64,000 bases of DNA from an uncultured Verrucomicrobiae bacterium (GTDB lineage Bacteria; Verrucomicrobiota; Verrucomicrobiia; Limisphaerales; UBA11358). The notes beneath the pieces are model-generated. The model saw only the letters and a list, made by a program, of their open reading frames with translations, made no database searches and was not told the origin of the DNA. Location: positions 10,765 to 74,764 of the forward strand of contig CAVWKA010000002.1 in the NCBI GenBank assembly GCA_963755515.1, given 5' to 3'. Shown here in pieces: positions 9,848 to 41,523 of this stretch (its first letter is position 1; every line of letters starts with the position of its first letter). The position numbers and the translations under genes were made by a program.

Positions 9848-10045
9848 CGTCGTCGCCTACGATTAAGCTGTCATCCTTTCAGGCGGCCGGGGCCGCATGA
9901 ACGTGGAACTCCAAACGGGGGGTTGGTTGGAAGGGGACAAAGTTTGGTGAAAATTAGAGACTCCTTACGTCGTATCCAACGAATAAGCTGTCATCCTTTC
10001 AGGCGGCCGGGGCCGCGTGAACGCGGGACTCCAAACGGGGGGTTT
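9848..10045 (+). repeat. two tandem REP-like units (approximately 78 bp each, 119-bp period) between the kinase and regulator genes
   Basis: 9848-9925 and 9967-10045 share ACGTCGT..ACGA.TAAGCTGTCATCCTTTCAGGCGGCCGGGGCCGC.TGAACG.GG.ACTCCAAACGGGGGGTT, with hairpins GCGGCC/GGCCGC and CCGCG-TGAA-CGCGG. A third copy plus the linker GGGGACAAAGTTTGGTGAAAATTAGAGACTCCTTACGTCGT recurs at 26844-26938. Confidence 0.85.
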
Positions 10046-15603: not shown

Positions 15604-15738
15604 TTTTAACTCGCTGCTGTGGCTTTCCGAAAAAAATGCCTGGATTCAGCAATCCGGCAAACTGGCTTGCCCCAAAAGGTGTGGCAAATCGAATTCCAAT
15701 CCTTGCCAACGTTCTGCCTAGGTGTTAAGGTCGCACTC

Positions 15739-17115
15739 ATGTCGGCGCCCCCCGTATCGAAATCTCCAGAGACCAAGGAAGACGACGGCGCTTTGTTGCG
15801 TTTGCGGGAGGACTACACGCAGGCCGTGCTCGACATGTTCAATACGAACGCCGGGGCAAGCGAGCTTCGTCCGCAAATTGAAGTTGTCGGCCACACTTCC
15901 AATTTTCTCGACAACATGCGGTTGCCTGTCCACCGATGGTTCCGCTATAGTGCTGGTTTTTCCGCCGAATGGGTGAAATGGCTTCTTGCCGAAAGAAGCG
16001 GGGGCGAATTGCGAGTCTTCGATCCATTTGTAGGTTCAGGCACGACTTGTTTGGCGTGCGATGAAATGGCGATTCCATCCTATGGATTGGAAGCGCATCC
16101 GTTTGTGCATCGCGTCGCCCGCGCCAAATTAAGTTACGCTGCCGACCCGGAGCGGTTTTTGGCCAAGGCGGAGAATGCATTCTGCTTCGCCAGAAAAGCA
16201 CGCGGCGCGAATGGCTACCCGGAACTTATCCACAAATGTTTCTCAGCCGAAACACTCGACTCTCTCGACCGATTTCGCCGGGCGGTGGAGGCGGAACAAG
16301 ACGGCACACGCGAGGCGGAATTACTATGGATGGCACTTGTATCATCATTGCGAGTTGTATCCAAAGCAGGCACCGCGCCGTGGCAATATGTATTACCTGG
16401 CCGGCGCAAGACCACACCACCGGCACCGGAAATTGCCTTACGCCGGGCGGTTCAGATGATCGCCATTGACATCCGCTTTCTGGCCCGACGCGCCAAGCCT
16501 TTGGCAAAACTCCGGGTGGATGACGCCCGCCAATGCGCGACCGTTCCGAATGGTTGGGCCACACTTGTTATCACCTCGCCGCCCTACGCGAATAATTACG
16601 ATTACGCGGATGCCACGCGACTGGAGATGACGTTTTTGGGCGAGATTCGCGGCTGGGGCGACCTTCAGGAAAAGGTTAGGCAACACCTGGTCCGCGCTTG
16701 TTCTCAGCATGTCCCGCCCAACGCGGTAAATCTCGACGCGATTTTGGACTCGCCGGAACTGGCTCCAATTCGTGACGAAATTGCGCCGGTTTGCCGTGAG
16801 CTTTCATCCGTGCGATTGGAACGTGGTGGGAAAAAGACTTACAACAACATGATCGCCTGCTACTTCCTCGACATGGCAAAAGTGTGGCTGGCGCTCCGCC
16901 GCGTGTGCGCGTCGCCGTCCGAGGCATGTTTTGTCATCGGTGATTCCGCACCCTATGGAATCTATGTGCCGGTCATCGAGTGGTTTGGCAAACTCGCGAA
17001 AGCGGCCGGTTTTGATTCCTGGACATTTGAAAAACTTCGCGACCGGAACATCAAATGGAAAAACCGCAAACATCGTGTGCCGCTTTGCGAAGGACATCTC
17101 TGGGTTCGCGGATAA
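15739..17115 (+). CDS. DNA amino-methyltransferase (N4-cytosine or N6-adenine), type II R-M
   Basis: Start trimmed to ATG 15739. AdoMet motif DPFVGSGTT, then catalytic SPPY (TLVITSPPYANNYDY) downstream, which is alpha-type motif order. Confidence 0.85.
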   Translation: MSAPPVSKSPETKEDDGALLRLREDYTQAVLDMFNTNAGASELRPQIEVVGHTSNFLDNMRLPVHRWFRYSAGFSAEWVKWLLAERSGGELRVFDPFVGSGTTCLACDEMAIPSYGLEAHPFVHRVARAKLSYAADPERFLAKAENAFCFARKARGANGYPELIHKCFSAETLDSLDRFRRAVEAEQDGTREAELLWMALVSSLRVVSKAGTAPWQYVLPGRRKTTPPAPEIALRRAVQMIAIDIRFLARRAKPLAKLRVDDARQCATVPNGWATLVITSPPYANNYDYADATRLEMTFLGEIRGWGDLQEKVRQHLVRACSQHVPPNAVNLDAILDSPELAPIRDEIAPVCRELSSVRLERGGKKTYNNMIACYFLDMAKVWLALRRVCASPSEACFVIGDSAPYGIYVPVIEWFGKLAKAAGFDSWTFEKLRDRNIKWKNRKHRVPLCEGHLWVRG

Positions 17116-17125
17116 TCTGAAGATT

Positions 17126-18013
17126 ATGGCGGAATCACTTGCTCATCGCTGGGGACAAATCATTGGAGACGTTTTTGAGATGTTTGTTCGCAACATTCTT
17201 ACGGACGTGGCGAAACAGCATGACCTCTACCTCGACTTCAAGCGCCCTCGCAAAGCCAGAGGCAGCCAAGGCAAGCTGACCTGGCAGGATGGCTACGGAA
17301 ACAAACATGATCTCGACTACGTTCTGGAGCGAGGTGGCGACGAAGAGAGGTTGGGTGTGCCCGCGGCGTTCATTGAGTCAGCATGGCGACGATACACCAA
17401 ACATTCGAAGAACAAGGTGCAAGAAATTGAAGCCGCTGTTATGCCAGTGGCACTGACATTTTCGAGGCATCAGCCGTTCCTTGGAGCAGTGCTGGCCGGC
17501 GAATTCACCAAGAATGCCCTCCAGCAACTGGAATCAAAAGGCTTTGCCGTTCTGCATGTATCCTACGAATCCATTCTAACGGCATTCAATCAACTTGGCA
17601 TTGATGCTTCGTCTGAGGATGGCGTAGGCGGCACGACCGAAGAACAATTCCACAACAAAATAGCAAAATGGCAATCACTTCCCCAGCCGCAGTCAACCAA
17701 CCGGCTCCTGGCCAAACTGCGCACTCTTCATGAACAGGAAATTCTCGATTTCAAGCAGTGCCTGGAAGCTGCCATCATGAGGCGAGTGAGTTCCGTCCGG
17801 CTGACTGTGTTACGTGGTCATTCGGTCGAATGTTCCGACATCGAAAGCGCCATTATCTATCTGGTTGAAGAAGAAAAATCCTACCGCATGCGGGAGGACG
17901 GTGAGCAGCGTGAAAGTTTTGAAATTCAAGTCCGATTCAATACGGGGGCGAAGATTGAGGCTACGTTCCCCAAACGCGCGGAATCAATTGCCTTTCTGCG
18001 CAGCTTCACATGA
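17126..18013 (+). CDS. putative type II restriction endonuclease (cognate of the adjacent methyltransferase)
   Basis: 295-aa ORF 10 nt after the MTase stop, with visibly lower GC than its neighbours. Possible PD-(D/E)xK elements (HDLDYVLER, FIESAWRRYTKHSKNK). The assignment rests mainly on context. Confidence 0.55.
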   Translation: MAESLAHRWGQIIGDVFEMFVRNILTDVAKQHDLYLDFKRPRKARGSQGKLTWQDGYGNKHDLDYVLERGGDEERLGVPAAFIESAWRRYTKHSKNKVQEIEAAVMPVALTFSRHQPFLGAVLAGEFTKNALQQLESKGFAVLHVSYESILTAFNQLGIDASSEDGVGGTTEEQFHNKIAKWQSLPQPQSTNRLLAKLRTLHEQEILDFKQCLEAAIMRRVSSVRLTVLRGHSVECSDIESAIIYLVEEEKSYRMREDGEQRESFEIQVRFNTGAKIEATFPKRAESIAFLRSFT

Positions 18014-22944: not shown

Positions 22945-25323
22945 ATGAAAAATCGCGGTGCAACTGTATTTACGGCGCTGGCTTTGCTGGCGCTCTTAAC
23001 CATAAACTTTCAACCCTCAACCGCCTTCGCCCAGAACACGGTAGTCACCTATCAGGGCCGGGTGACGGACAATGGGACGAATTTTAGCGGCGCTGGACTG
23101 TTCCAATTCGCGCTGGTGACCAGCACGAACAACGACAGCCAGGCGACCGCCGCCGCCAGCCCTCCCAGCGGCGGCTACGTGACGGTCATCAACGTGATTT
23201 CCGGGGGTGCTGGATATACCAATACGCCTGCGGTAACCATCAGCGGCGGGGGCGCCAGTACGAACGCGACGGCGACGGCGACGGTGAGCGGCGGGGCGGT
23301 GACGGGCATCACGGTCACCGATCCTGGTTTCGGCTACACCAGCACGCCGACAGTGGTGATTGCGCCGCCTCCGCCGGACATTACCTACACGACGTATTGG
23401 AGCAATGACGGCACGGGCGTGAATGGGAGCGAACCCTCCGCAGCGGTGGGCGTGGGCGTGAGCAACGGGCTGTTCACCGTGGGATTGGGCGACACGACGC
23501 TGGCGAACATGACGGGGCTTCCCGCGGGGCTGTTCACGCAGCCGGGGCTACAACTGCAAATCTGGTTTAATGACGGCGTGAATGGTTTTGCGTTGCTCAA
23601 TCCGTTGCAGGACCTCACGGCGACGCCTTACACGGCTTTTGCCAACAGTGCCAGTAATTTGCTGGGAGTGTTACCGGCAGGCCAGTTAAACGGCACGGTG
23701 CCATTGTCGCAATTGCCGGCGGCAGTGGTGACGAACGATGAAACGTCCGTGACGCTGGACAATCTCACTCTCAACGGCGTAATTACGGCAAATGACGGCA
23801 TCAGTATCATCAGCGGCAGTCTAAATCTGCCTAATCCGGTCACGGTTAATTCCGGCTTTGGCAGCCTTTTTTATTCCGGCAGCGCGAATGGCAATTTTTT
23901 TGCCGGCCTCTTTGCCGGCAATCCGGCCAACGACAACGGCGGCGACAACGCGGCCTTTGGCGCTAATGCGCTTGCATCCAATACGACCGGCTCCGATAAC
24001 GCGGCCAGCGGCTTTGACGCGCTTTACTTCAATACGGGAGGCGATGCGAACACGGCGGATGGATGGAAAGCGCTTTATGCCAACACGAGCGGGGGTCTTA
24101 ACACGGCCAACGGCTCTCAGGCGCTTTTTTCCAATACGAACGGAAGCGGCAACACCGCCTCCGGATTTGATGCGCTTTACGCCAACACGAGCGGCGAAAA
24201 CAACACGGCAGATGGCGGTCAAGCGCTTTACGGTAACACGAGCGGGGGTCGTAACACGGCCAACGGCTTTCAGGCGCTTTTCTCCAATACGAACGGCACC
24301 GGCAACACGGCCTCCGGATTTGATGCGCTTTACGCCAACACGGGCGGCGAAAACAACACTGCGGATGGCTGTCAAGCGCTTAACGGTAACACGAGCGGGG
24401 GTCTTAACACGGCGAACGGCTTCCAGGCGCTTTTCTCCAATACGAACGGCACCGGCAACACGGCCTCCGGATTTGATGCGCTTTTCGCCAACACGAGCGG
24501 CGAAAACAACACTGCGGATGGCGGTCAAGCGCTTAACGGCAACACGAGCGGGGGTTTTAACACGGCGAACGGCTTCCAGGCGCTTTTCGCCAATACGAGC
24601 GGCGGTCTGAACACCGCCAACGGCTTCCAAGCGCTTGACGCAAACACAGGCGGCAGCCAAAACGTCGCAATAGGCAATGATGCGCTCACCAACAACACTT
24701 TGGGCAGCGGCAACATCGGTATTGGATTTCAGGCCGGGGAAGCTAATCCCAACGACGCCAATGACAACATTGACATCGGCAGTCCAGGCGGGACTTTTGA
24801 CGGCACAATTATCTCTCCCGGCGGCGTCGTCCGCATCGGAAGCGGCCAAAGTGCCACTTATCTGGCAGGGAATGTCTATGGCGAGAGTTTCAATCAAAGC
24901 AGTGACCGGAACGCCAAGGAAAATTTTGCCGGCATCAATCCGCAAACGGTGCTGGCCAAAGTGGCGGAAATGCCCATCACCGAATGGAATTACAAGATTG
25001 ATAGAAATGTCGAACACATCGGCCCGATGGCGCAGGATTTTCACGCGGCGTTCGGGTTGAACGGAGGCGATGACAAACATATTTCCACGGTGGATGAAGG
25101 CGGCGTGGCGCTGGCGGCGATACAGGGGCTTAATGAAAAGGTGGAAGTCAGAAGTCAGAAGTCAGAAGTCAGAATCCAGAATCTGGAAGTGGAGAACGCG
25201 AAACTCCAGGCGGAGGTTTCCGATTTGCGGTCGCAGCTTGGCGGGCTGCGAGAGGCCGTGGCCCGGCTCACGGACCCATCCGCCAGTCCGGTTGCCCTGA
25301 ATACGCGACAGGAGGACAAATGA
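22945..25323 (+). CDS. secreted fibre protein ('tail fibre domain' type) with C-terminal peptidase-S74 intramolecular chaperone domain, paralogue 1
   Basis: Signal peptide; [16 protein letters not shown]...FQFALVTS head; two GGxGYTxxPxVTISGGG pseudo-repeats; about 15 copies of a 17-aa repeat NTAxGxxALxxNTxGxx. The C-terminus SSDRNAKENF..ITEWNYK..HIGPMAQDFHAAFGL..STVDEGGVALAAIQGL is the endosialidase-chaperone signature, followed by a coiled coil. RBS AGGAGA lies 6 nt upstream. Confidence 0.85.
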   Translation: MKNRGATVFTALALLALLTINFQPSTAFAQNTVVTYQGRVTDNGTNFSGAGLFQFALVTSTNNDSQATAAASPPSGGYVTVINVISGGAGYTNTPAVTISGGGASTNATATATVSGGAVTGITVTDPGFGYTSTPTVVIAPPPPDITYTTYWSNDGTGVNGSEPSAAVGVGVSNGLFTVGLGDTTLANMTGLPAGLFTQPGLQLQIWFNDGVNGFALLNPLQDLTATPYTAFANSASNLLGVLPAGQLNGTVPLSQLPAAVVTNDETSVTLDNLTLNGVITANDGISIISGSLNLPNPVTVNSGFGSLFYSGSANGNFFAGLFAGNPANDNGGDNAAFGANALASNTTGSDNAASGFDALYFNTGGDANTADGWKALYANTSGGLNTANGSQALFSNTNGSGNTASGFDALYANTSGENNTADGGQALYGNTSGGRNTANGFQALFSNTNGTGNTASGFDALYANTGGENNTADGCQALNGNTSGGLNTANGFQALFSNTNGTGNTASGFDALFANTSGENNTADGGQALNGNTSGGFNTANGFQALFANTSGGLNTANGFQALDANTGGSQNVAIGNDALTNNTLGSGNIGIGFQAGEANPNDANDNIDIGSPGGTFDGTIISPGGVVRIGSGQSATYLAGNVYGESFNQSSDRNAKENFAGINPQTVLAKVAEMPITEWNYKIDRNVEHIGPMAQDFHAAFGLNGGDDKHISTVDEGGVALAAIQGLNEKVEVRSQKSEVRIQNLEVENAKLQAEVSDLRSQLGGLREAVARLTDPSASPVALNTRQEDK
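24151..24609 (+). repeat. 3 x 153-bp near-identical tandem super-repeat (each 3 x 51 bp) inside fibre gene 1
   Basis: Units start at 24151, 24304 and 24457 (AACAC(C/G)GCCTCCGGATTTGATGCGCTTT...). They encode NTASGFDALYANTSGENNTADGGQAL.GNTSGG.NTANGFQALFSNTNGTG. Confidence 0.85.
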
Positions 25324-25414
25324 AAACAGGAGGTAGCGTGACCGGGTAGCGACACGGACGCACCGGAAGATTGGATGGGGGGCGCTTGATTTGGGAACGC
25401 GAGTTTGCGCGGAT

Positions 25415-26113
25415 TCATGATTCGCCGCCGAAGCGCGGGCCGATTTGCATTTTTCCGACGACGACCGCGCCGTCTTCCACCATCAGATGCCGGGCATCCA
25501 CGTCGCCGAACAACCGGGCGGTGGACTTGAGGACGACCAAGTCCCGGGCGCGGAGATTGGCGGCAAGTTCCCCGGCGATTTCGGCCGACTGGACCTTGAG
25601 CGGGGCCGTCCAGCGAAAATGATTCTCCGACGGAATGATCAGATGGGAGGCAGTCAGGCTGCCTTTGATGTCGGCGGTCGAGTAAATGGTCAAGGAGCGT
25701 TCGACGGCGAGCTTGCCGTGGAATTTTCCCCGGATGACGGCGTCGCCGACGATGGTATCGGTATTAAAGACGCAGCCTTTGGGTTCGATGACAAAGACGC
25801 CCTTGGTCTTGAAATTTTTGGCAATGGCGGTGGTGATGCGATAATCGTGCAGGTCCACGTAGCGGCCGCATTGTTTGCACATGGTGGACTCGGCGCTGGC
25901 CGGCGCGTCGAGTTCCGCGCCGCACTCGAAGCAGGCAACCCGCCTGTGTTTCGGCGTCCGCTTGGGCGCAGTTGGCGGCGGATTGAGAACGTCCTGGACG
26001 CGGAGATGCTGCCCGCATTTTTTGCAGATGGTGGAGTAGGCCGAGCGCGGCTCCATTTGTTGGTGGCCGCAATGCGGACAGGCCACCATGACCTTGTCCT
26101 GTTTCTCCGGCAT
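25415..26113 (-). CDS. bactofilin-domain protein with two N-terminal zinc ribbons
   Basis: CPHCGHQQ..17..CKKCGQ and CFECGAEL..15..CKQCGR, then a bactofilin-type beta-helix with repeated (I/V)xGxhxG motifs (VGDAVIRGKFHGKLAVERSLTIYSTADIKGSLTASHLIIPS... ARLFGDVDARHLMVEDGAVVVGKM). Confidence 0.8.
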   Translation of the reverse strand: MPEKQDKVMVACPHCGHQQMEPRSAYSTICKKCGQHLRVQDVLNPPPTAPKRTPKHRRVACFECGAELDAPASAESTMCKQCGRYVDLHDYRITTAIAKNFKTKGVFVIEPKGCVFNTDTIVGDAVIRGKFHGKLAVERSLTIYSTADIKGSLTASHLIIPSENHFRWTAPLKVQSAEIAGELAANLRARDLVVLKSTARLFGDVDARHLMVEDGAVVVGKMQIGPRFGGES

Positions 26114-26143
26114 TCAATGTCTTTCGGCCCGCCGCGGCACGAT

Positions 26144-26560
26144 TCAACGTCCGGCCCTGCCCGATTCCGGAGATTTTGGGTTATCCGGCGGACGGACCAC
26201 GGGCGGCGTGGGTTGGACCTTGTTCGGATTGACTTCGGTTTTCCCGACAAAGGTGACGCCCTCTTCGACGACCAGTTTGGGGGCGCGGATGTCGCCAAAC
26301 AATTCGGCCTTGGACTTGATCTCAATTTTTTCCCTGGCATTGATGTTGCCGTTGACCTTGCCGCGGACGACGACCGACTGGGCGGCGATGTTGCCGTTGA
26401 TGACGGCGCTGTCACCGAGGGTCAAACTGCCGTCGGTTTGGATTTCGCCGTCGAGTTTGCCATCAAAGGTGAGTTCGCCGGAGAACTTGAGGTTGCCTTT
26501 GACTTCGACGTCGGAGTTCAACGCGTTTTTGGAGGCGCCTGGTGTGTTCGTCGTGTCCAT
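26144..26560 (-). CDS. bactofilin (polymer-forming cytoskeletal protein)
   Basis: Start trimmed to ATG 26560 (RBS AAGGAGAAAAG upstream). 138 aa: VEVKGNLKFSGELTFDGKLDGEIQTDGSLTLGDSAVINGNIAAQSVVVRGKVNGNINAREKIEIKSKAELFGDIRAPKLVVEEGVTFVGK, with a Pro-rich tail. Confidence 0.85.
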   Translation of the reverse strand: MDTTNTPGASKNALNSDVEVKGNLKFSGELTFDGKLDGEIQTDGSLTLGDSAVINGNIAAQSVVVRGKVNGNINAREKIEIKSKAELFGDIRAPKLVVEEGVTFVGKTEVNPNKVQPTPPVVRPPDNPKSPESGRAGR

Positions 26561-26843
26561 CTTTTCTCCTTTTTTGTAATACTTAATGCAGGAGGAGAGA
26601 GGTGTCAAAAGTTTATTTTGCGGGCGGGGAAAAAGGGGGAAGCGTTTACGCGAATTGGCGCGAAGGGACACGAATGGAAAGGGGAAAGGCACATTCTCAC
26701 GCAACGGTCGCAGCCGCCGTCGCCCAGGCTCCCGTCTCCGCCAAGGCTACGCCGGGCAGGATGGCGGGCCAAGAAGGCCGCAAAGAAATGCAGATGAACG
26801 CAGATGAAAAAAGCTGAAAGCTGACCAGTCTTAGCCGCGCTTC

Positions 26844-26938
26844 GGGGACAAAGTTTGGTGAAAATTAGAGACTCCTTACGTCGTCTCCTACGATTAAGGA
26901 GGCCCGGACCGCGTGAACGCGGAACTACAAACGGGGGG
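26844..26938 (+). repeat. third copy of the REP-like unit seen between the kinase and regulator genes
   Basis: GGGGACAAAGTTTGGTGAAAATTAGAGACTCCTTACGTCGTCTCCTACGATTAAGGAGGCCCGGACCGCGTGAACGCGGAACTACAAACGGGGGGG. Compare 9933-10045. Confidence 0.85.
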
Positions 26939-27188
26939 GCGTTTTCGACGCGGCCAAGTGACAAAGTTGGCACAAGGACTTGAGAACAAGGGCGGCGTAG
27001 CGTCGAGCTCCGCGGCTGAGGGTGCGCGGGATTTTCCTGTCCCGCCTTCCAAAAACCGGCGACTGGCCGCCGTCGCGCCGAAGCGGCGCTTTGGCGCGCC
27101 GCGGAAGAGTCGCCGGAACCCGCCGGCTGGAAAGCCCGCGCCAGGTCTTTGTCACTGGCCCCGCCCAAGGGTTTTAGTCCGTATTATA

Positions 27189-27217
27189 TTGACAAGAAGC
27201 TGAGCTTTTTATATACT
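27189..27217 (+). promoter_or_regulatory. near-consensus sigma-70 type promoter upstream of fibre gene 2
   Basis: TTGACA (27189-27194), a 17-nt spacer, then TATACT (27212-27217), 88 nt upstream of ATG 27305. Confidence 0.55.
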
Positions 27218-27304
27218 GCCGCCGCTTCGGAAGGGCTGTTGGCGTGTCTTTGCGCCCTTTCCGAACGCACATCAAGGAACAACAAAGAGCAGAAAGGTTA
27301 AGTT

Positions 27305-29975
27305 ATGAAATCGCTGTCGCGTCGTATTGTATGCAGTGCGCTGGCCTGGCTGGCGCTTTTGACCCTCAACCTTCAACTCACGATTGCCCATGCGCAGGGG
27401 ACGGTGTTCACGTACCAGGGACGGGTGACGGACAATGGCACGAACTTTAACGGCACGGGGCAGTTCCAGTTTGCGCTGGTGACCAGCACGAACGGCCAGA
27501 CGGCGACGGCCACAGCGAACATGGGCGGGGTTTCGCCGACTAAATTCGTCAGCAGTTGCAGTATTGTCAATGGCGGGAGCGGTTACACGACGGCGCCGGC
27601 AGTGAGTTTTTCCGGCGGTGGCGGCACGGGCGCGACGGCCACGGCGAATCTCACCGGGGGCGTTGTCACGAGTATCACCATTGACACGCCTGGTTCAAGC
27701 TACAGCAGCGCGCCGGCGGTGACGATTGCGCCGCCGCCGCCGGTTTACACGACGTTTTGGAGCAACGACGGCACGAGCGTGGCCGGGAGCGAGCCATCGG
27801 CGGCCGTGGGGGTGGGGGTGAGCGGCGGCCTCTTCACCGTGGGATTGGGCGACACGACGCTGCCGGGCATGTCATCTCCGCTTCCGGCCTCCCTGTTCGC
27901 CTCGCAATCGGATCCTGGAGCTGATGATGTGGTTCAACGACGGCGTGAATGGTTTTGCGTTGCTCAATCCGTTGCAGGACCTCACGGCGACGCCTTACAC
28001 GGCTTTTGCCAACAGTGCCAGTAATTTGCTGGGAGTGTTACCGGCAGGCCAGTTAAACGGCACGGTGCCATTGTCGCAATTGCCGGCGGCAGTGGTGACG
28101 AACGATGAAACGTCCGTGACGCTGGACAATCTCACTCTCAACGGCGTAATTACGGCAAATGACGGCATCAGTATCATCAGCGGCAGTCTAAATCTGCCTA
28201 ATCCGGTCACGGTTAATTCCGGCTTTGGCAGCCTTTTTTATTCCGGCAGCGCGAATGGCAATTTTTTTGCCGGCCTCTTTGCCGGCAATCCGGCCAACGA
28301 CAACGGCGGCGACAACGCGGCCTTTGGTGCTAATGCGCTTGCATCCAATACGACCGGCTACCAAAATACGGCCAATGGCTTTGGCGCGCTTTACTTCCAC
28401 ACGGACGGCTACCAAAACGCGGCCAATGGCTATAAGGCGCTTTTTTTCAACACCAGCGGTCTCCAAAACACGGCCAATGGAGCGTTTGCGCTTTTTTCCA
28501 ACACCAACGGTTACGGAAACACGGCCGATGGCTATCAATCGCTTTATGACAACACGAGCGGCAACTTAAACACAGCCGTCGGCGCTTATGCGCTTGAAAA
28601 CAATACAACCGGCGGCGGAAACACGGCCAATGGCGAGGGTGCGCTTTTTTCAAACACCAACGGCTACGACAACACGGCCAATGGCTTCGATGCACTTGCA
28701 GACAACACGAGTGGCCACGAAAACACAGCCAATGGCGTTTATGCACTAGCAGACAACACAAGCGGCTACCAAAATACGGCCAATGGCTTTGGCGCGCTTT
28801 ACTTCAACACGGACGGCTACCAAAACGCGGCCAATGGCTATAAGGCGCTTTTTTACAACACCAGCGGTCTCCAAAACACGGCCAATGGAGCGTTTGCGCT
28901 CATTGACAACACGAGCGGCTTCCAAAACACGGCCAACGGCGAGAATGCGCTTTTTTCCAACACCAACGGTTACGGAAACACGGCCGATGGCGTTGCCGCG
29001 CTTTACGGCAACACGAGTGGCGAAAATAACACGGCCGATGGCGTTGCCGCGCTTTACGGCAACACGAGTGGCGACGGAAACACGGCCAATGGCGAGAATG
29101 CGCTTTACTCCAACACGAGCGGCAACTACAACACCGCGGTCGGCTTTGGGGCGTTAGAGGATCTTGGCTTCGGCGCCGCCGGCGGCAACAATAACATTGC
29201 GGTGGGCTTCGTTGCCGGCGGCGCGTTCACAGGGAATGAAAGCTCCAACATTGACATTGGCAATGTTGGAATCGCCGGCGAAAGCGGCGTCATCCGCATC
29301 GGCACCGAAGGGATTCAGAACTCCACTTTCCTGGTCGGCAAGGTGGGCATCAACGAAGCCAGTCCGTCAGGCGCGTTGCACATCACGGGTCCCACCAATG
29401 CGCCGCCGACCGGCGTGGGCAGCGGTGACAACGGGCTGGTGCTAGGCACGACCGGCACGACGGGCTACAAATGGATTCAGAGTTACGGCGGACCGCTGGT
29501 GTTGAACGGCCCCGGCAACGATGTCGGCATCGGCAACGAATCCCCCGTCTATCCGCTGGAGATGGGCAGCGGGGCCTATTGCAGCGCCGCAGGCGTTTGG
29601 ACGAGTGTTTCCGACCGCAATGCCAAGGAAAATTTTAGGGCCATCCAACCCGCCGAAGTGTTGGCCAAAGTCGCCGCGCTCCCGATTACGCAATGGCAAT
29701 ACAAAGCAGAGCCGACGGGAACCGAACACATCGGCCCCATGGCGCAGGATTTTCACGCGGCGTTTGGCTTGAACGGCGCGGATGACAAACACATTTCCAC
29801 GGTGGATGAAGGGGGCGTGGCGCTGGCGGCGATACAGGGGTTGAACCAGAAAGTGGAGGAGCAATTGAAAGAAAAGGACGCCGAGATTGCGGATTTGAAA
29901 CAGGAAAACGATTCGCTGGCCGAACGCCTGAACGAACTGGAACAAACGGTTAAAAAACTCGCGGAAGGAAATTAA
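27305..29975 (+). pseudogene. fibre protein with peptidase-S74 chaperone domain, paralogue 2, interrupted by a +1 frameshift near 27905-27925
   Basis: ORF 27305..28024 carries the signal peptide and head ([17 protein letters not shown]..). ORF 27924..29975 carries the body ([20 protein letters not shown].., about 16 x 17-aa repeats) and the S74 end (VSDRNAKENF..ITQWQYK..HIGPMAQDFHAAFGL..). Comparison with paralogue 1 (..LFTQPGLQLQIWFNDG..) places the frame break between LFASQS and [11 protein letters not shown]. Confidence 0.75.
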
Positions 29976-30581
29976 GAAGGGCGGGGGCGTCCGGGGGGGG
30001 CTGCCGCGTTTTCAAAAGGCACAACTCACGGCTCTTGCAGCGAAAAAAACCTTCTTAAGAATGAGCGATTTTGAGTTATTTTAATGCAAAGGATTTATTC
30101 AAAAAAGGTCAGAAGAAGTCTCACCAGATGATGTGAGCCGGTTCTCTTGAAAAAACTACGCGTATTTCGAAGGTGGCGAAATTTACGGGCGCCTTCCCCA
30201 AAGCGGTGTGGCGCTTCGCTTCCCCCCGCACTCCATGACGGCAAGCGAGTTCGTGGGCCTGTCCGCAGTTCGTTTATCAATAAAAACTGAGGCCGAAGAG
30301 GAGATGCGCGCTTCCGCCTACGCCAAGAGGCTACGGCGGACAGGTCGCCTCCGCTGCGCTTCCGTCTTCGTTGCACTCCGACGCGACGCGACGGCGCCGG
30401 CAGGTTGCAAATGCGGTTGTCGTTGGAGGCTCGGAGACCCAGGGCGGCGCTCGCAGACTCGCTTGACCTGGGCTACTATCGGTCACCCCTTCGGGGTATT
30501 ATTCTGCGGCTGCGCCGGAGGTTATTTGCAGTCAAAGCGAACCAAGAGGAAAATGACGCCGCTACAGTTTTTTTAGACGCG

Positions 30582-33297: not shown

Positions 33298-33855
33298 TTG
33301 GATAAAATCTCGAGCATGGCCCCGGCGGATGATTTTGACTGTATTCAGAACAGCCTTGTCGGCGATTCCGAGGCCTTTGCCACACTGGTTCGAAAAAATC
33401 AAAAAATGGTGTTTGCTGTTGCATTTCGCATGACGGGTTCCGTTGCCGATGCGGAGGATCTGACGCAGGAAACATTTCTGCGCGCGTACCAGCACTTGGA
33501 TGGGTTTCGCGCTCAATCAAAGTTTTCCACGTGGCTATGTCAAATCGCGGTGAACCTGGGGCTTAATTGGCGCGCCCGGGAAAGTCGGCGTGGCGATGTT
33601 CACATCAAATGGGCCGAGGATTTGGATTTGGCAGGAAGGCCTGGCAACTTTCCGGATGAACTTTCGCAGCGCGTTCAAGAGGCCCTGAACAGGCTTCCGG
33701 CGAAGCAACGTGCCGCCATTGTCCTGACGGTTTATGAAAATCAGAACCACGCGGAAGCGGCCAAAGTTTTGAATTGCAGTGAAGCCACGGTTTCCTGGCG
33801 TGTTTTTGCCGCGCGGCGGAAATTGAAACGCCTGTTGAAAGGAATGGCTATATGA
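33298..33855 (+). CDS. ECF (sigma-24 type) RNA polymerase sigma factor
   Basis: Region 2 (DAEDLTQETFLRAYQHLDGFRAQSKFSTWLCQIAVN) and region 4 (LPAKQRAAIVLTVYENQNHAEAAKVLNCSEATVSWRVFAARRKLKRLL). TTG start at 33298; the alternative ATG at 33316 is plausible. Confidence 0.9.
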   Translation: MDKISSMAPADDFDCIQNSLVGDSEAFATLVRKNQKMVFAVAFRMTGSVADAEDLTQETFLRAYQHLDGFRAQSKFSTWLCQIAVNLGLNWRARESRRGDVHIKWAEDLDLAGRPGNFPDELSQRVQEALNRLPAKQRAAIVLTVYENQNHAEAAKVLNCSEATVSWRVFAARRKLKRLLKGMAI

Positions 33856-34454
33856 ACAATTCCGACCTTGATTCCCTTTTGAGAAAGGCTCGCATTCCGG
33901 AGCCGTCGGATGAATTTTCAGCCGGATTGCCGCAACAAATGGCGCGGCAGATGAATCGTTCGCGAATGCAAGCCGCCCGGCCGCCACGAATCTGGTTGCG
34001 GCGGCTTGCTTGGGGCTTTGCAACGATCGTTTGCGTTCTCATGGCTTTTGCCGTCGGCCTTCGGCGTGGACAAACGGGAAAGGATGCAATCTCCACCAAT
34101 GACATCCTGGCAAATGTGAAATTTGTCCAGGAAACGCTGGCAACCTTTCCCGGCCAGGTCCGGGCCATTGTCGAAGATCAGCGGGGACTGAATGTGATAT
34201 TGTCCGACACCAATGATGTTCCTTCGTCCGCGCCACTTTACGTGAGGGTTTTTAACGGCAAAGAATGGGCCGCGGTGGTGACCTTCAGCGGCCAGGAAAT
34301 CCGGATTGCCGGCCAAAAGATGACCGTGCTTTCAGACGCGCATGGCGGGATCATACTTATTGGAAATGATTTTGCATGGTCAAGCCGCGGACCGGCGATG
34401 GAAAACGATGATCTCAAAATCAGCGCAAAAGACCTTGGCCTGGGCGCCCTCTAA
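33852..34454 (+). CDS. putative single-pass anti-sigma factor
   Basis: ATGA overlap with the sigma gene. Short cytoplasmic N-terminus, one TM (LAWGFATIVCVLMAFAVGL) and an extracytoplasmic domain of about 120 aa. Assigned by position and architecture only. Confidence 0.55.
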   Translation: MNNSDLDSLLRKARIPEPSDEFSAGLPQQMARQMNRSRMQAARPPRIWLRRLAWGFATIVCVLMAFAVGLRRGQTGKDAISTNDILANVKFVQETLATFPGQVRAIVEDQRGLNVILSDTNDVPSSAPLYVRVFNGKEWAAVVTFSGQEIRIAGQKMTVLSDAHGGIILIGNDFAWSSRGPAMENDDLKISAKDLGLGAL

Positions 34455-34455
34455 C

Positions 34456-37400
34456 ATGAAGCGCCTCATTTTAATCACGGCCCTTTTTTTTCCGGCGTTG
34501 CGGGCGCCGGCCCAAAACAACGAAGTGCCCCGGTTGGCGCTGATCGCGGAATCGCCGGAGGCGTCCGCGGCCGTTGATATTCTCACGGCGCAACTTTCAT
34601 CGAATGACAAGGTCCGTTTGCTGGAACGCGATGAGATTGAGAAGGTGTATCAAGAGCAGGGCCTGTCGGCGGGCAATCGGGACGACTTGAAACTGGGCCG
34701 GTTGCTCGGCGCGGACGGGTTATTGTTGCTCGATGTAAAGATCATCGAGTCCAGTTCTCCGTTTGGACCCAGACCGGTGGAAACAAATCTGACCGCACGG
34801 CTGATCGCGGTGAAACCCGGGGTCATTTTGGATGACGAAAAGTTCCCGGTCGGCGATTTGGCGGGGTGGTCCCCGGGATATGCGACTCATTTGGATTCAT
34901 TCCTGCCAAAACTGGGCGTGGCAGCGGGGAACGCGATTCCCATTGCGGTGGTGAACCTGCGCTCGTCCGTTCAATCCGCCGACGAAGCGGAAACCGAAAG
35001 GGAACTAAAGGCATTGACGATTCAAAGGCTGAGCCGGGAACAGCAATTATTTGTACTGGAGCGGGAGCGGATGCAATTATTGGAGCGGGAAAAGGGATTA
35101 AATTCAGACGAATCGGCGTTTTGGGACGGCAGCTACCTCCTGGAGGGGACCGTGGACCAAAATGGTTATTCCGCGAGCACCATCACCATTGATGCCCGGT
35201 TGACGCCGCCGAAAGGCGGCGCGCCATTGTTGTTCGAAGTGCGCGGAGCGCGCACCAATCTGGTTGAGGTGATCAATCAATTGGCCGACAAGGTCGTCGC
35301 ACTTCTGAATGTGAAATCCGCCGCGCCGGAATGGAATGCCGCGGATGAGGCGTCGAAGTTTTTTGACGAGGCCAAATGGGCACTGCGGTGGAAATCATAT
35401 TCGGAAGCAGAGGCAGCGGCGGATTCGGCGTGGGCCTTGGGGAAGAGAGACATGGAATGCGCGCGAATACGGATAATGATCCGCCTCGAGGAGTTGCCTG
35501 AGGTTGTTCCGCCTGGCGATACAATTGGTTCATACTATGTAAGTATCAACGACCCGCCCAATGAGACGGATTGCGACACGGCGATTTCCGCCCTGGAAAG
35601 CTATTATGAATTTAGCCGGACCTCGGCAGAAGGCGTGCCCAAGATGTCTTTTCACGGCCCGGATTACGTTTTTCGCCAGCCGGATTGGTATCTTCTCGGC
35701 GTGGGTACGCTCGTGGCGGCTTCTGAAGTATTGCAGCATTATTATTTTAATCCGCGATCACGACCAGCCGTTGCCGAGAAATTGGCCAATTTGCGCGCCT
35801 TGACGCGTTCAGTTGCCGGATTGATTTCAGAATCACCGTCCGTGCATGACAGTTATTTCGTCGGGAATCGCACCATCGCGCCAGACCGATTATTGCAAAC
35901 TTTTTCACCGAGGTGGGTGTATGGTTTTTGGCAATTAGCTTATCCCAAGCTGGTCCCCAGTTTTTTTGAGTGTGCGGTCGAATGGGGTCCTTTCTGGCAG
36001 GAACGGCCGGAAGATGATCTCGAAGTTTACCGCGAATTGATGGCAAGTCCGCTGTTTTTTTGTCTCCACGATAACTTTTGGTCCAGAAACCAATACTGTC
36101 CGTGGCTCGTTGCCTGGAATGAGGAGGATCAAAAGCGCATTCCGGTGGTTTGGAGCGGCTTTATCAATGACATGAACGCATCCACGAATTACTTTTGGCG
36201 GTTCGAAGCAAAAGCTCTGGCTTGTGCCGAAGCTCGCGGCAAAGCCTGGGCGGGGGAAAGGCCTGCTTTTGCCGGCCTACCCCAATTTACTCCATCCGGG
36301 ATCTCTCCGGCGGGCGCTCAACTTGCCGATGCTGACGAAGGCTGGAAGGCAAGCCGCGAAGCGTTGCTTGATTTTATTTCGACAAATTATGATTCAATTG
36401 TGGACGATAACGGCAATCTTCCGCGGAATGATTGGAATATGGATTTTCTGCTCGGAGGGAAATCCGAATATGCTTCCAGATTTGCGGCAATCCAACAAAA
36501 CTTTCTCAACCAGCATGCCGACCGGGTGAAAGAAATCGAAAATCGGGAGGAGATTGAAGAACAAGAGGAATATCTGGCGCGTTTTACGCCGTACGACTGG
36601 AACACCTTTAACAAGGTCTTTTCATCACACGATTACACCAAGGAGCAGGCGGCCGAATTGGAGCCGCTGATTGCAGCCTATAAATCCAACCTCCTTGCCA
36701 GAGCCACCACCGAGAACGAAAAATTCACGGCAGGAAACAATGCGAAGTGGATGGATTTTTATTTGGGAAGCTCGATCCGCGAGGCCCTGAATCCACCGGC
36801 ACACCCGATGCCGTCGCCAACATTCTCGCCGGCGAAAATCACCGCTCCAACTTTGGGGAGGCCAATACGGCCGGTTGCTTCCGCCGTCCCCAATGGGATG
36901 ATTGTTTCAAAGTCGCCGCCGGAAATTCCGACGAACATCGTGACCGTAACGAAATTTCTGCCAATTCCATACAATCAGTTAAGCAACAACGGCAAGGGCA
37001 TACAGATCTTCGCGGAACGTTGGAGCGAAGGAAAACTTTTGGCCGGCCTGGAATACCATCAATACCGCAGTGGCTTTGACATGAATCGAAATTGGACGAC
37101 CGCCAATATAACGCTGTCCGCCATCGCAATTTTGAATCCAACCAATCAAAGTTGGGATTTTATCGGATGTCCCGAGTCACCCGGGGCCGACATGGGATTA
37201 CGAGTGCTGGAAAACGACACTGAGCGATTGATACTGTTTCGAGGCAATTTATATTCATGCCTGGACGGACCTCTTCAGGAATTCGACTTTCGGACGCAAA
37301 GTTGGCGCATGCTGGAAGCTCCCGGAGCCGACAAGTCGTTTTTATTCGCGTTAAACGATCATTTGTATGCCGCCAATGACAACGCAATTTTCGAGATCGC

Positions 37401-38262
37401 CGATAGCGGGAACACGCGCATCATGGCCAGCACGCGCCGCCGCCCGGCAATCACAACACTCGATTCGTTGGACAACTTCCGTGCCGTGCAAATGTTTGCC
37501 GGTCCCGATCAATCCGTTTGCGCGAGCATCGGGCAAAAAATTTATCGTTGGGATGGAGACGATTGGCGCGAAATTTTAACCGCAAACGCCTCCGAGCCGC
37601 CGGACATTTTTGATGAAGCGGTCGTTTTTCGCGACCTTCCTTCGTTCAATTCGGACGAGCCGGAACGATTATGGATTTGGACCAAAAGCGATGCTCCACC
37701 TGAACTGGCTCTGGCGGGCAAATCAAGACCCCATCCAAACATCATCAACCCGTATTGGCAGCCACCGGATCATCAGAACTTGCGCCCACTCTGGAAATCA
37801 CCGGATGAGGATTTTTTGGCCGTTTCTCCCGCCGCATTTTATCAGACCAATCTTTATTTCTTCATTAATCACGCCGACATCAGGAATGTCAACGGGGAGC
37901 GGATGGTCATGGAAAAAGACGGTTATCACACCCAATTGATTTGTTTAAGCCCTGATTTCAACGAGCCAATCGTAATTCCGTTGAGATTTGATGCAAGCCA
38001 GGGCCAGGCACCATCAAACCTGTCGGGGGAGCCGGCCACACCGTGGCTGGCGAAGGATAGGATGTTCCTTGATACGACGGCGTATTTTTCCGACGGCCAG
38101 TTATTTTTCAGCCAACGAAGTATTGCCGGAGTCTGGTCAATTCCCATTTCAGAACTTCAATCGGCTATTGCGGCCCGGAAGCAAGTTCAGCCCGGTCAAG
38201 TGGTTCGGGCGAGAGCGGCAGCAGAATCGAATGATGAAACGGCCGCCCAAGACCACCAATGA
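34456..38262 (+). CDS. large secreted hypothetical protein (1268 aa) with N-terminal CsgG/LpoB-like domain
   Basis: Start trimmed to ATG 34456 (signal peptide MKRLILITALFFPALRAPAQ). PRLALIAE..AAVDILTAQLSSNDKVRLLERDEIEKVYQEQGLS resembles the N-domain of the CsgG-like lipoprotein at 39157. Kelch/beta-propeller-like segments occur near aa 900-1000. The rest is unassigned. Confidence 0.75.
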   Translation: MKRLILITALFFPALRAPAQNNEVPRLALIAESPEASAAVDILTAQLSSNDKVRLLERDEIEKVYQEQGLSAGNRDDLKLGRLLGADGLLLLDVKIIESSSPFGPRPVETNLTARLIAVKPGVILDDEKFPVGDLAGWSPGYATHLDSFLPKLGVAAGNAIPIAVVNLRSSVQSADEAETERELKALTIQRLSREQQLFVLERERMQLLEREKGLNSDESAFWDGSYLLEGTVDQNGYSASTITIDARLTPPKGGAPLLFEVRGARTNLVEVINQLADKVVALLNVKSAAPEWNAADEASKFFDEAKWALRWKSYSEAEAAADSAWALGKRDMECARIRIMIRLEELPEVVPPGDTIGSYYVSINDPPNETDCDTAISALESYYEFSRTSAEGVPKMSFHGPDYVFRQPDWYLLGVGTLVAASEVLQHYYFNPRSRPAVAEKLANLRALTRSVAGLISESPSVHDSYFVGNRTIAPDRLLQTFSPRWVYGFWQLAYPKLVPSFFECAVEWGPFWQERPEDDLEVYRELMASPLFFCLHDNFWSRNQYCPWLVAWNEEDQKRIPVVWSGFINDMNASTNYFWRFEAKALACAEARGKAWAGERPAFAGLPQFTPSGISPAGAQLADADEGWKASREALLDFISTNYDSIVDDNGNLPRNDWNMDFLLGGKSEYASRFAAIQQNFLNQHADRVKEIENREEIEEQEEYLARFTPYDWNTFNKVFSSHDYTKEQAAELEPLIAAYKSNLLARATTENEKFTAGNNAKWMDFYLGSSIREALNPPAHPMPSPTFSPAKITAPTLGRPIRPVASAVPNGMIVSKSPPEIPTNIVTVTKFLPIPYNQLSNNGKGIQIFAERWSEGKLLAGLEYHQYRSGFDMNRNWTTANITLSAIAILNPTNQSWDFIGCPESPGADMGLRVLENDTERLILFRGNLYSCLDGPLQEFDFRTQSWRMLEAPGADKSFLFALNDHLYAANDNAIFEIADSGNTRIMASTRRRPAITTLDSLDNFRAVQMFAGPDQSVCASIGQKIYRWDGDDWREILTANASEPPDIFDEAVVFRDLPSFNSDEPERLWIWTKSDAPPELALAGKSRPHPNIINPYWQPPDHQNLRPLWKSPDEDFLAVSPAAFYQTNLYFFINHADIRNVNGERMVMEKDGYHTQLICLSPDFNEPIVIPLRFDASQGQAPSNLSGEPATPWLAKDRMFLDTTAYFSDGQLFFSQRSIAGVWSIPISELQSAIAARKQVQPGQVVRARAAAESNDETAAQDHQ

Positions 38263-38309
38263 AGATATTCGTCAAAGAATTCAGGCGGCCAAATTGTCTG
38301 ATATATCGA

Positions 38310-39152
38310 ATGAAACGGCTTGTCAGCCTATGCCTCTTATTACTGGCCGGGCATCTGGACGGCGCAGTCGGAAGCACAACTCCAACTGGCCGTTTCCGGC
38401 GAACCGCAGGTGATTTTCCCCGGCAAATCGCGGATCATCTCCGTGGCTTTCAGTAATCCAGCGCAAAGCGATTTTGCCGGTGAAATCCGTGCGCGGGTTT
38501 ATCAAGCGTCGTCGGCGACCACATTCCTTTTCTCCGATGCGCCCTGGAAAAACGTTGCCGTGCCGGCGGAGAAACCGTTCTGGAAACCGCTGCTTTGGAT
38601 TTTCCACGGGTGAACGCGAAAACCAGATTTCTGGTTCAATGGCTGGAAGATACCAACCTCATAATCGGCACGACATCGGTACTGGTTTATCCAACCAATC
38701 TATTTCAAATGCTGCCGTCGCTCCGCCAAAATGATTTTGGGGTCCTGGATCCCGACGCCCGGCTCAAGCCGCTGTTGAAAGCAGCAGAGATTCCGTTCGT
38801 GGATCTCGGCGAGATGGCGTTGACAAATTTTTCGGGCAAATTGGCGATTATCGGTCCATTCGATTCCAAAGACCGGGAGCCGGATGGAATCGCGAATCGA
38901 ATATCGGCCATTGCCAAAGATGACGTGGCGGTGGTATGGATTCAGCCGCCGCAAGATGAAAACGACAAACTTCAACCTTCCTTCTATTCCGTATGGAAAG
39001 GCCGTGCCCCCGTTGTTGTGGCACAGGCGAAACTGGTCTCGGATTTGGCTGAAAACCCGCAATCACAACTCAACCTGATTTGTCTCTGCCAAGAGGCATT
39101 AAATCCCCAACCGGCGCTTTTGCCCGGCTCGGAACCGCAACCGTGGAATTGA
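38310..39152 (+). pseudogene. secreted hypothetical protein read in three segments (frame 3, then frame 1, then frame 3)
   Basis: Signal peptide MKRLVSLCLLLLAGHLDGA is in frame 3 from ATG 38310. The protein-like middle part AQSEAQLQLAVSGEPQVIFPGKSRIISVAFSNP...NVAVPA is in frame 1. The continuation GETVLETAALDFPRVNAKTRFLVQWLED... returns to frame 3 and runs to stop 39152. Frame 3 has a stop at 38454. Confidence 0.5.
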
Positions 39153-39156
39153 AATT

Positions 39157-41430: not shown

Positions 41431-41523
41431 CAGATTCCATACTCTCAAGCGTAATCCGGGGGCAAAAGGGATGTCGAATTTTTTCAGATACTTTTTGCCG
41501 GCCAATTGCGCTTAATCATTTGG

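Follow-up and report, generated by a model that had tools for sequence, protein, structure and literature searches.

Two S74-chaperone fibre genes around a conserved bactofilin pair in a Verrucomicrobiae genome: a probable accident of gene position

In the DNA of a soil bacterium belonging to the Verrucomicrobiae, two plus-strand genes for fibre proteins with a Peptidase_S74 chaperone domain bracket two bactofilin genes on the opposite strand. The spacing is tight, with 92 bp between the convergent ends of fibre 1 and the bactofilin pair and 745 bp between the pair and the divergently oriented fibre 2. The scaffolding of envelope machinery is an established function of bactofilins, and both this general knowledge and the tight spacing favour the proposal, made in a preliminary description of the locus, that the genes constitute a spatially organized module in which bactofilin polymers would direct the export or anchoring of fibres to a pole or an appendage. 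Do these genes indeed belong together, or does the arrangement reflect only where they happen to reside? We approached this question through the domain content, conservation and genomic surroundings of each component, using the entire 64-kb stretch of DNA that was analysed (hereafter the window) and homologous loci from other genomes and metagenomes.

Both minus-strand genes encode bactofilins, as had been described, and both exceed the Pfam cut-off of 27.9 bits for the family (PF04519). The first gene of this two-gene unit (26144-26560, minus strand, within an ORF spanning 26144-26704) encodes a small bactofilin of 138 amino acids that starts with MDTTNT, scores 96.8 bits and covers profile positions 3-97 of 98. 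Its companion (25415-26113, minus strand) encodes a protein of 232 amino acids that scores 67.9 bits, the match being divided into two stretches, and that carries two N-terminal CxxC...CxxC zinc ribbons. The zinc-ribbon bactofilin is 56-87% identical to its counterparts in 66 other species, and an orthologue of the small bactofilin resides directly upstream of it at all 66 of these Verrucomicrobiae species loci. Nucleotide homology across species is limited to positions 25421-26633 and ends about 15-70 nt upstream of the ATG of the small bactofilin gene. Judged from this pattern of conservation, the bactofilin pair is an independent unit of 1.2 kb, present in every Verrucomicrobiae species locus examined while its neighbours vary by species.

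The preliminary description had called for a survey of whether fibre and bactofilin genes co-occur, and this survey was conducted from both sides. An S74 fibre gene was found within 10 kb of the orthologous bactofilin pair at one of the 66 Verrucomicrobiae species loci, and in this sole case the fibre gene lies about 9 kb away on the opposite strand. From the fibre side, tblastn and HMM searches that recovered the window as a positive control revealed no bactofilin at any of 80 fibre loci. These loci come from metagenome contigs (median length 6.3 kb), such that more distant linkage could escape, although gaps as short as the 92 and 745 bp seen in the window would fall well within this length. 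Clustering of six-frame ORFs from the same 80 loci likewise yielded no recurrent partner gene for the fibres, but only alternative frames of the fibre genes themselves and an ECF sigma factor in five loci. The closest relatives, whose bactofilin is 84-87% identical, have quite different neighbours around the pair, and two sister genomes have their fibre homologues 1.1 and 2.1 Mb away from it. Searches for a genome of the same species were unsuccessful, and exact look-ups of the window bactofilin and of its 100%-identical twin (P0121) gave no contig.

The proposal of a fibre-bactofilin module fails at the comparative level because no recurrent adjacency was found on either side of the survey, an outcome that the preliminary description itself had named as refuting it. 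Several other observations also argue against it: the arrangement is missing in the closest relatives, the genes occupy opposite strands and so do not form one operon, the fibres are Sec substrates without an identifiable cytoplasmic part that could touch a cytoplasmic polymer, and one of the two fibre genes is frameshifted as sequenced. We therefore regard a positioning module as very improbable. It is highly likely that two unrelated things stand side by side at this locus, namely multi-copy fibre paralogues and an independent bactofilin unit, and that the bracketing is an accident rather than a functional arrangement. The bracketing is specific to this genome, and most plausibly reflects the positions that members of a scattered and recombining family happen to occupy. 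Since the juxtaposition does not recur, it offers no handle on the positioning of surface fibres. A link between fibres and bactofilins is possible only as strain-specific co-regulation through the divergent 745-bp intergenic region. This region contains a promoter-like site upstream of fibre 2 (TTGACA-17-TATACT, 27189-27217, plus strand), which is a consensus match only, at 11 of 12 positions, and shuffled sequence is expected to contain as many such sites as the region does.

If the bactofilins do not account for the fibre genes, what kind of proteins do these genes encode? Fibre 1 (22945-25323, plus strand) is an intact ORF of 792 amino acids. Both fibres have the N-terminal form of a Sec signal peptide, judged by eye from a positive n-region, a hydrophobic core and a cleavage-type site: the sequence begins with MKNR, continues with a hydrophobic stretch and reaches AFA followed by Q in fibre 1 (amino acids 1-29, nt 22945-23031) or AHA followed by Q in fibre 2. 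The conserved head of fibre 1 (about amino acids 30-235) includes two GGxGYT modules, which occur in the fibres as GGxGYT..P.V motifs, and a head of this kind is modelled as beta-rich with a pLDDT of 80-97 over about 190 residues and is conserved among homologues. Fifteen 17-residue NTAxGxxAL repeats in exact register form the shaft of fibre 1 (amino acids 335-589, nt 23947-24711). The S74 chaperone domain begins at Ser653 (nt 24901-25053) and is opened, in both fibres, by the sequence SDRNAK (24901-24918 in fibre 1), an SDxxxK motif that was located by motif search. This motif is predicted to provide the serine of autocleavage together with its partner lysine, and is kept in most aligned homologues. 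A long C-terminal helix (about amino acids 718-776 in fibre 1) is predicted by the monomer model with a pLDDT of 80-92.

Fibre 2 shares these parts but is divided between two frames. Its 5ʹ part (27305-27914, plus strand, in an ORF spanning 27305-28024) encodes the signal peptide and head, and its 3ʹ part in the +1 frame (27915-29975, plus strand, in an ORF spanning 27924-29975) encodes seventeen 17-residue repeats, likewise in exact register, followed by an S74 domain that carries SDRNAK and then a coiled coil, with about 75-100 more residues ahead of the cleavage site than are present in fibre 1. Peptidase_S74 (PF13884) matches score 41.1 bits for fibre 1 and 46.9 bits for fibre 2 against a Pfam cut-off of 22, and the S74 and bactofilin domain assignments of the preliminary description are both upheld. 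The features it listed for two fibre genes (signal peptide, head, repeats, S74 domain and coiled coil) are likewise present, although fibre 2 does not form a single open reading frame, and its count of 15-16 repeats holds for fibre 1 but falls short of the 17 in fibre 2. Some homologues are named trimeric autotransporter adhesins by JGI. This assignment was considered and set aside, as Pfam detects no YadA-type anchor, head or stalk family in the window fibres, whose C-terminus consists only of Peptidase_S74 and the coiled coil and thus lacks the YadA-type beta-barrel.

The fibre family is very large, with more than 6,143 database matches whose source names represent several phyla. NCBI calls its members 'tail fiber domain-containing protein', and NCBIfam has no model for these fibres. 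This name, together with S74 domains and a repeat shaft as commonly found in the tail fibres and spikes of phages, raises the possibility that the genes are relics of a prophage, a tailocin or a contractile injection element. Individual modules do have relatives among viruses. The shaft matches PHROG tail-spike and virion families and shows 44-50% identity to the tail fibres of marine podophages that infect Pelagibacter, Roseobacter and Methylophilales; the GGxGYT module has matches in cyanophage neck, baseplate and structural proteins; and the S74 domain with its catalytic motif is common to phage fibres and tailspikes that carry a C-terminal intramolecular chaperone, such as the K1F endosialidase, the T5 L-shaped fibre and the GA-1 neck appendage. 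However, the window fibres differ from phage fibres by a Sec signal peptide, which is not expected of virion proteins because these are assembled in the cytoplasm, and no phage match covers 80% or more of the fibre protein. No relatives of the head were found in 2.9 million viral contigs scanned with either fibre 1 by itself or an alignment of 18 sequences, the search patterns being derived from the head and not extending to the S74 domain or shaft. In these sequence comparisons, the GGxGYT pair, the 17-residue shaft and the S74 domain have phage virion counterparts, whereas the full architecture that includes the signal peptide has none.

Genomic context also distances the fibres from phages. 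Pfam scans of large ORFs detected no capsid, tail, baseplate, integrase or terminase family in the 64 kb of the window, nor was any virion or lysis gene found there, and the flanks of the locus are chromosomal (a rhamnosidase, a GH63-like hydrolase, DUF374 and an ECF sigma factor). Homologues of the fibres in sister genomes have carbohydrate-active and housekeeping genes as neighbours. A prophage-derived origin as a relic element is thus extremely unlikely, and the view that the fibres are host-encoded, which the preliminary description had advanced, accords with the signal peptides, the flanks and the absence of phage genes and viral head relatives. Its statement that no phage or secretion genes occur within 10 kb holds for phage genes but not strictly for secretion genes, since two CsgG-domain genes (34342-38262 and 39157-40089) lie about 4.4-10 kb downstream of the fibres. 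Rfam yielded no match between 20 and 33 kb of the window.

The best match of the family profile among solved structures, covering the S74 region and the next helix, is the ICA domain of MYRF (7dc3, E=1.3e-7), a eukaryotic membrane-bound transcription factor. The profile also matches the GA-1 neck appendage chaperone (3gud), whose cleaved form starts with residues that align with SDRNAK, and SDRNAK of fibre 1 aligns with the MYRF domain as well. The fibres and MYRF have an SDxxxK-type logic of self-cleavage in common, but only the chaperone module is shared, and its context and function are entirely different. Searches of the PDB with a single fibre sequence gave no match, and those with the profile matched the S74 module only. 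Foldseek searches of the PDB with monomer models, which are poor structural queries for a probably intertwined trimer, gave no significant match for either the head (best E=0.34) or the shaft plus S74 domain (E=0.011, K5A lyase, TM 0.13).

Can the two fibre genes be trusted as sequenced? A +1 frameshift in fibre 2 (27905-27914, plus strand), caused by one additional nucleotide that fibre 1 lacks (sequence context TCGGATCCTGG), places the ORF for the signal peptide and head out of register with the overlapping ORF for the remainder of the protein. About 25 nt from this site is the 5ʹ edge of a tract shared by fibre 1 (23572-23992, plus strand) and fibre 2 (27939-28359, plus strand) with one mismatch in 421 nt, outside of which the paralogues are 65-90% identical. 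Collapsed or cross-polished reads from paralogous fibre genes in a metagenome-assembled genome could produce the tract, the frameshift and perhaps even the adjacency. Such an artefact would fit the near-identity of the tract within otherwise diverged genes and the proximity of the frameshift to it. It would also fit the state of a kinase paralogue gene elsewhere in the window (45550-47300), which repeatedly leaves and regains frame and so indicates indel-rich stretches in this sequence, and the fact that the fibre proteins of the window, like its rhamnosidase, are absent from the protein collection searched although its bactofilin is present. Nevertheless, both fibre copies are colinear over their whole length with full-length family members, and the head, repeat number, tip and S74 region have diverged separately in each. 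Gene conversion among repeat-rich paralogues for surface proteins is a common and real phenomenon, and two distinct fibre genes would remain even if the tract were artefactual. We consider an assembly artefact unlikely. The near-identical tract shows what appears to be genuine sequence exchange between the fibre paralogues. Programmed frameshifting in fibre 2 was also evaluated and rejected for want of support, as no slippery heptamer is present at the site, homologues are single ORFs, and other genes in the window are disrupted by indels.

Domain content and the known biochemistry of S74 domains suggest how such fibres might be made. The Sec signal peptide would export the chain, and the C-terminal S74 domain would act as an intramolecular chaperone that nucleates trimerization of the repeat shaft. 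The chaperone would then cleave itself at the serine of SDRNAK, a step that would remove the coiled coil as well. The product would be a mature trimeric fibre whose conserved N-terminal head is probably proximal to the cell and whose variable region ahead of the cleavage site could serve as the distal tip. We infer trimerization, cleavage, export across the outer membrane and a surface location on this basis.

The closest characterized analogues are the mosaic adhesive trimer (MAT) fibres of Bdellovibrio bacteriovorus, and in particular their S74 subgroup, exemplified by Bd3182 (Caulton et al. 2024, PMC10769870). The MAT-S74 fibres carry a signal peptide, a conserved and beta-rich N-terminal domain of ~130 amino acids and an S74 domain with SDxxxK, and their self-cleavage and surface location have been demonstrated (PMC10769870). 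The likeness is one of architecture, as both sets of proteins proceed from a signal peptide directly into a conserved beta-rich N-terminal domain and on through a long repetitive shaft to an S74 domain with SDxxxK. Like the window fibres, MAT fibres are chromosomal and multi-copy, and are mosaics of phage-like modules with a variable region ahead of the cleavage site. There are also differences: the window-family profile does not match the S74 fragment of Bd3182 in the PDB at E<=1, the shaft here consists of regular 17-residue repeats, the S74 domain precedes a coiled coil, and the host is not a known predator. By analogy with the MAT fibres, the window fibres would most probably serve at the cell surface in adhesion or in the recognition of ligands. 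Our verdict is that both the fibres and the bactofilins are unexceptional representatives of known types and that their proximity is due to chance.

The fibre family nevertheless has implications beyond this locus. Genes for signal-peptide-bearing S74 proteins annotated as 'tail fiber domain-containing' form a huge chromosomal family in soil bacteria, with signs of recombination between paralogues, and tandem same-strand fibre arrays are common elsewhere, as observed at ten loci. An architecture resembling that of MAT fibres is also found in non-predators. A broader reading, which we offer only tentatively, has two parts that are proposed jointly: large repertoires of secreted MAT-like fibres, built from phage tail-fibre modules and diversified by gene conversion between paralogues, may exist in soil Verrucomicrobiae that are not predators and in several further soil phyla, and the pair of zinc-ribbon and small bactofilins may be an uncharacterized core cytoskeletal unit of Verrucomicrobiae that is independent of these repertoires. 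If this is true, MAT-like fibres would serve bacteria in general as a system of variable receptors or adhesins on the cell surface.

For the bactofilins, the relevant comparison is with the characterized proteins BacA/B, CcmA, BacM and BacE/F, with which both window genes have the beta-helical PF04519 core in common. The window pair departs from these examples in the zinc ribbons of one copy, in its fixed two-gene organization across Verrucomicrobiae and in the lack of an adjacent characterized partner gene. We know of no studies of bactofilins in Verrucomicrobiota, and the constancy of the pair makes it a reasonable target for cell biology in this phylum. The two zinc ribbons, which did not figure in the preliminary description, are a separate observation; no description of a fusion between zinc ribbons and a bactofilin was found in the literature.

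Four genes occupy the region from 22945 to 29975. Two of these, fibre 1 (22945-25323, plus strand, 792 amino acids) and fibre 2 (27305-29975, plus strand), are paralogous genes for S74 'tail-fibre' proteins, and between them on the minus strand lie a small bactofilin gene (26144-26560) and a zinc-ribbon bactofilin gene (25415-26113). The identity of both intervening genes as bactofilins, claimed in the preliminary description, is upheld by matches to PF04519 at 96.8 bits for the small and 67.9 bits for the zinc-ribbon gene (cut-off 27.9). The sequence features given there are largely borne out, apart from three corrections described below. That description also proposed that fibres and bactofilins form a spatially organised module, a proposal that can be evaluated by surveying gene neighbourhoods from both sides.

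For the bactofilin-side survey, a 24-sequence alignment of relatives of the zinc-ribbon bactofilin was used to collect 66 loci, one per species-level genome and nearly all from metagenome-assembled genomes of soil Verrucomicrobiae (986 kb in total, median 15.4 kb). Only one of these loci (L060) carries an S74/fibre match, which is encoded on the other strand at a distance of about 9 kb. The fibre-side survey started from 18 aligned full-length fibre homologues and yielded 80 metagenome loci (702 kb, median 6.3 kb), none of which contains a bactofilin detectable by tblastn or by HMMs derived from the 66 orthologous pairs; these HMMs recover both bactofilin genes of the window at E=1e-66 to 1e-69. 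Two sister genomes assembled into megabase contigs each have a fibre homologue on the same contig as the bactofilin pair, 1.1 Mb and 2.1 Mb away from it. Fibre genes are thus not enriched beside bactofilins, the proposed module is not supported, and the adjacency is specific to the genome represented by the window. Each component belongs to a known kind and is ordinary for it: the fibres are part of a widespread S74 family resembling the mosaic adhesive trimer (MAT) fibres of Bdellovibrio bacteriovorus, and the bactofilins form a pair conserved in the lineage.

In many loci, fibre genes stand in tandem on one strand as two or three copies (e.g. L071, L080, L097, L100, L131, L136 and L143 of the surveyed set). 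Two nearby paralogues on one strand therefore reflect the normal habit of the family, which points to local duplication as its usual route of expansion, and the one unusual feature in the window is the 2-kb insert that separates fibre 1 from fibre 2.

The bactofilin pair itself is a fixed two-gene unit of 1.2 kb (25415-26633). The small bactofilin, whose true start is the ATG at 26560 as judged by comparison with relatives, is found directly upstream of the zinc-ribbon bactofilin in all 66 loci, and protein identity across the pair ranges from 56 to 87%. At the nucleotide level, the window is homologous to these loci only across 25421-26633, which spans both genes and a short leader; outside the unit nothing is conserved among loci, and the flanking genes vary by species. 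In one locus (L032), 4 kb separate the pair from the orthologous rhamnosidase, and the interval lacks a fibre, instead encoding what by-eye reading of translations, without profile search, identifies as a CPBP-like protein, a trypsin-like protease and a GT39-type transferase. The downstream bactofilin also bears two N-terminal CxxC...CxxC zinc ribbons. It is strongly conserved, with 1,681 matches, the best 120 of which are 67-100% identical and about 237 amino acids long. No description of a zinc ribbon fused to a bactofilin turned up in a literature search, and this universally paired protein of Verrucomicrobiae could be taken up as a separate subject.

The fibre architecture originally described (signal peptide, head, GGxGYT motifs, repeat shaft and S74 domain) is present in both paralogues, with 15 and 17 repeats, and Pfam scores exceed the cut-off for the S74 domain as they do for the bactofilins. 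The N-terminus of fibre 1 (MKNR, a hydrophobic stretch and AFA|Q), read by eye, is a predicted Sec signal peptide. The head that follows is strongly conserved in alignments of homologues, where QLQIWFNDG and a 19-residue stretch form the conserved motifs, and it holds two GGxGYT..P.V motifs. Fifteen 17-residue NTAxGxxAL units then run in perfect register from residue 335 to 589, followed by a Peptidase_S74 domain (41.1 bits, cut-off 22) that opens with SDRNAK, an example of the SDxxxK serine-lysine motif, and by a long C-terminal helix modelled at pLDDT 80-92. Fibre 2 shares this layout and has about 75-100 additional residues ahead of SDRNAK as well as two additional repeats; these differences fall at 29311-29611 and about 28831-28950. 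The variable region before the cleavage site differs between the two proteins, and the paralogues therefore differ mainly at the predicted distal tip.

By the order of its parts, the fibre appears closest, among characterised systems, to the MAT fibres. Members of that family combine a signal peptide with a long trimeric shaft and with an N-terminal domain that is invariant, rich in beta structure and proposed to keep the fibre attached to the cell; 13 of 21 carry an S74 domain with SDxxxK, and self-cleavage of the MAT S74 domain has been shown experimentally (PMC10769870). In the probable mechanism, the chain would be exported via Sec, trimerisation would be driven by the C-terminal chaperone, and a cut at Ser653 would free the chaperone and coiled coil. 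The trimeric fibre would then be displayed with the variable region immediately before the cleavage site as its tip.

The fibre family comprises more than 6,143 proteins at E<=1e-5 among 8,000 candidates scored. Its source names include Verrucomicrobiota, Alphaproteobacteria, Acidobacteriota-type bins and others, and named members are labelled 'tail fiber domain-containing protein'. A JGI label, 'trimeric autotransporter adhesin', is not supported because a Pfam scan detected no YadA-type anchor. The protein is a patchwork whose modules have counterparts in phage virions. Its 17-residue repeat shaft shares 44-50% identity with annotated tail fibres from Methylophilales phage Venkman, Roseobacter phages CRP-1 and CRP-7 and Pelagibacter phages HTVC111P and HTVC112P, and it has further matches among PHROG tail-spike and virion-protein families. 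Sequence and fold searches relate the GGxGYT module to cyanophage neck, baseplate-wedge and structural proteins, and the S74 region resembles the MYRF ICA domain and the GA-1 neck-appendage chaperone. A phage protein search found no protein spanning at least 80% of the fibre, whose whole architecture opens with a predicted signal peptide.

A prophage origin of the locus was also considered and rejected. Pfam scans of large ORFs across all 64 kb found no virion, integrase or lysis genes, head-pattern scans found no relatives of the head domain in 2.9 million viral contigs, and base composition is unremarkable throughout the region. The Pfam matches in the window are to other kinds of gene (radical-SAM enzymes, glycosyltransferases, a two-component system, PspC, glycoside hydrolases, a rhamnosidase, DUF374, ECF sigma factors, Ser/Thr kinases, a Mg-chelatase-like ATPase and others). 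The earlier reading of the fibres as host-encoded and not part of a prophage is supported.

Fibre 2 had been described as a single open gene, but is broken by a +1 frameshift into ORFs at 27305-28024 (signal peptide and head) and 27924-29975. Alignment with fibre 1 places one extra base near 27905-27914, within TCGGATCCTGG, a segment that includes GATC and CCTGG. Through the greater part of the two paralogues sequence identity is 65-80%, rising to about 90% in the S74 region, and a 421-nt tract (23572-23992 in fibre 1, 27939-28359 in fibre 2) differs by one base. This suggests gene conversion between paralogues, of which such a tract is the expected product. About 25 nt separate the frameshift from the 5' edge of the tract downstream of it, and the extra base could be a junction error of conversion. 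Cross-polishing of paralogous reads could also have produced both tract and frameshift, and the window does have indel-rich stretches, as indicated by a kinase paralogue that slips repeatedly out of and back into frame from 45550 to about 47300. The frameshift could mark a true pseudogene, a slip at the junction of a gene conversion, or an error of base calling, polishing or assembly; the main conclusion is the same whether fibre 2 is a pseudogene or an assembly error. The scale and recombination of this fibre family in non-predatory soil bacteria could be taken up separately.

Other possible disruptions occur in the window. The Ser/Thr kinase paralogue at 45550-47300 (its intact counterpart is at 41506-43722) loses and regains the frame several times and is interrupted by stop codons; it represents a decayed pseudogene or else a stretch of the assembly rich in indels. 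At 15619-18013, two overlapping same-strand ORFs of 498 and 360 amino acids are offset by +1, the first containing a DNA methylase domain only as a C-terminal fragment; this pair may be another disrupted gene.

The preliminary statement that phage genes are absent holds, but its companion, that no secretion genes occur within 10 kb, is not strictly true, since a pair of CsgG-domain genes that follow an ECF sigma factor gene lie 4.4-10 kb downstream of the fibres. No association between CsgG-type genes and fibres was found in the survey of other fibre loci. This cluster (33298-40089) also includes a possible anti-sigma gene (200 amino acids, without a family match), and of its two CsgG proteins one has 1306 residues and bears the CsgG-type domain at its N-terminus, while the other is CsgG/FlgT-like; the cluster may serve the cell envelope. 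Finally, short intergenic repeats pair 26844-26938 with 9933-10042 (79% identity) and 30198-30240 with 49507-49549 (88% identity). The latter is present in another surveyed locus (L009) as well, and both pairs may be REP- or MITE-like elements.
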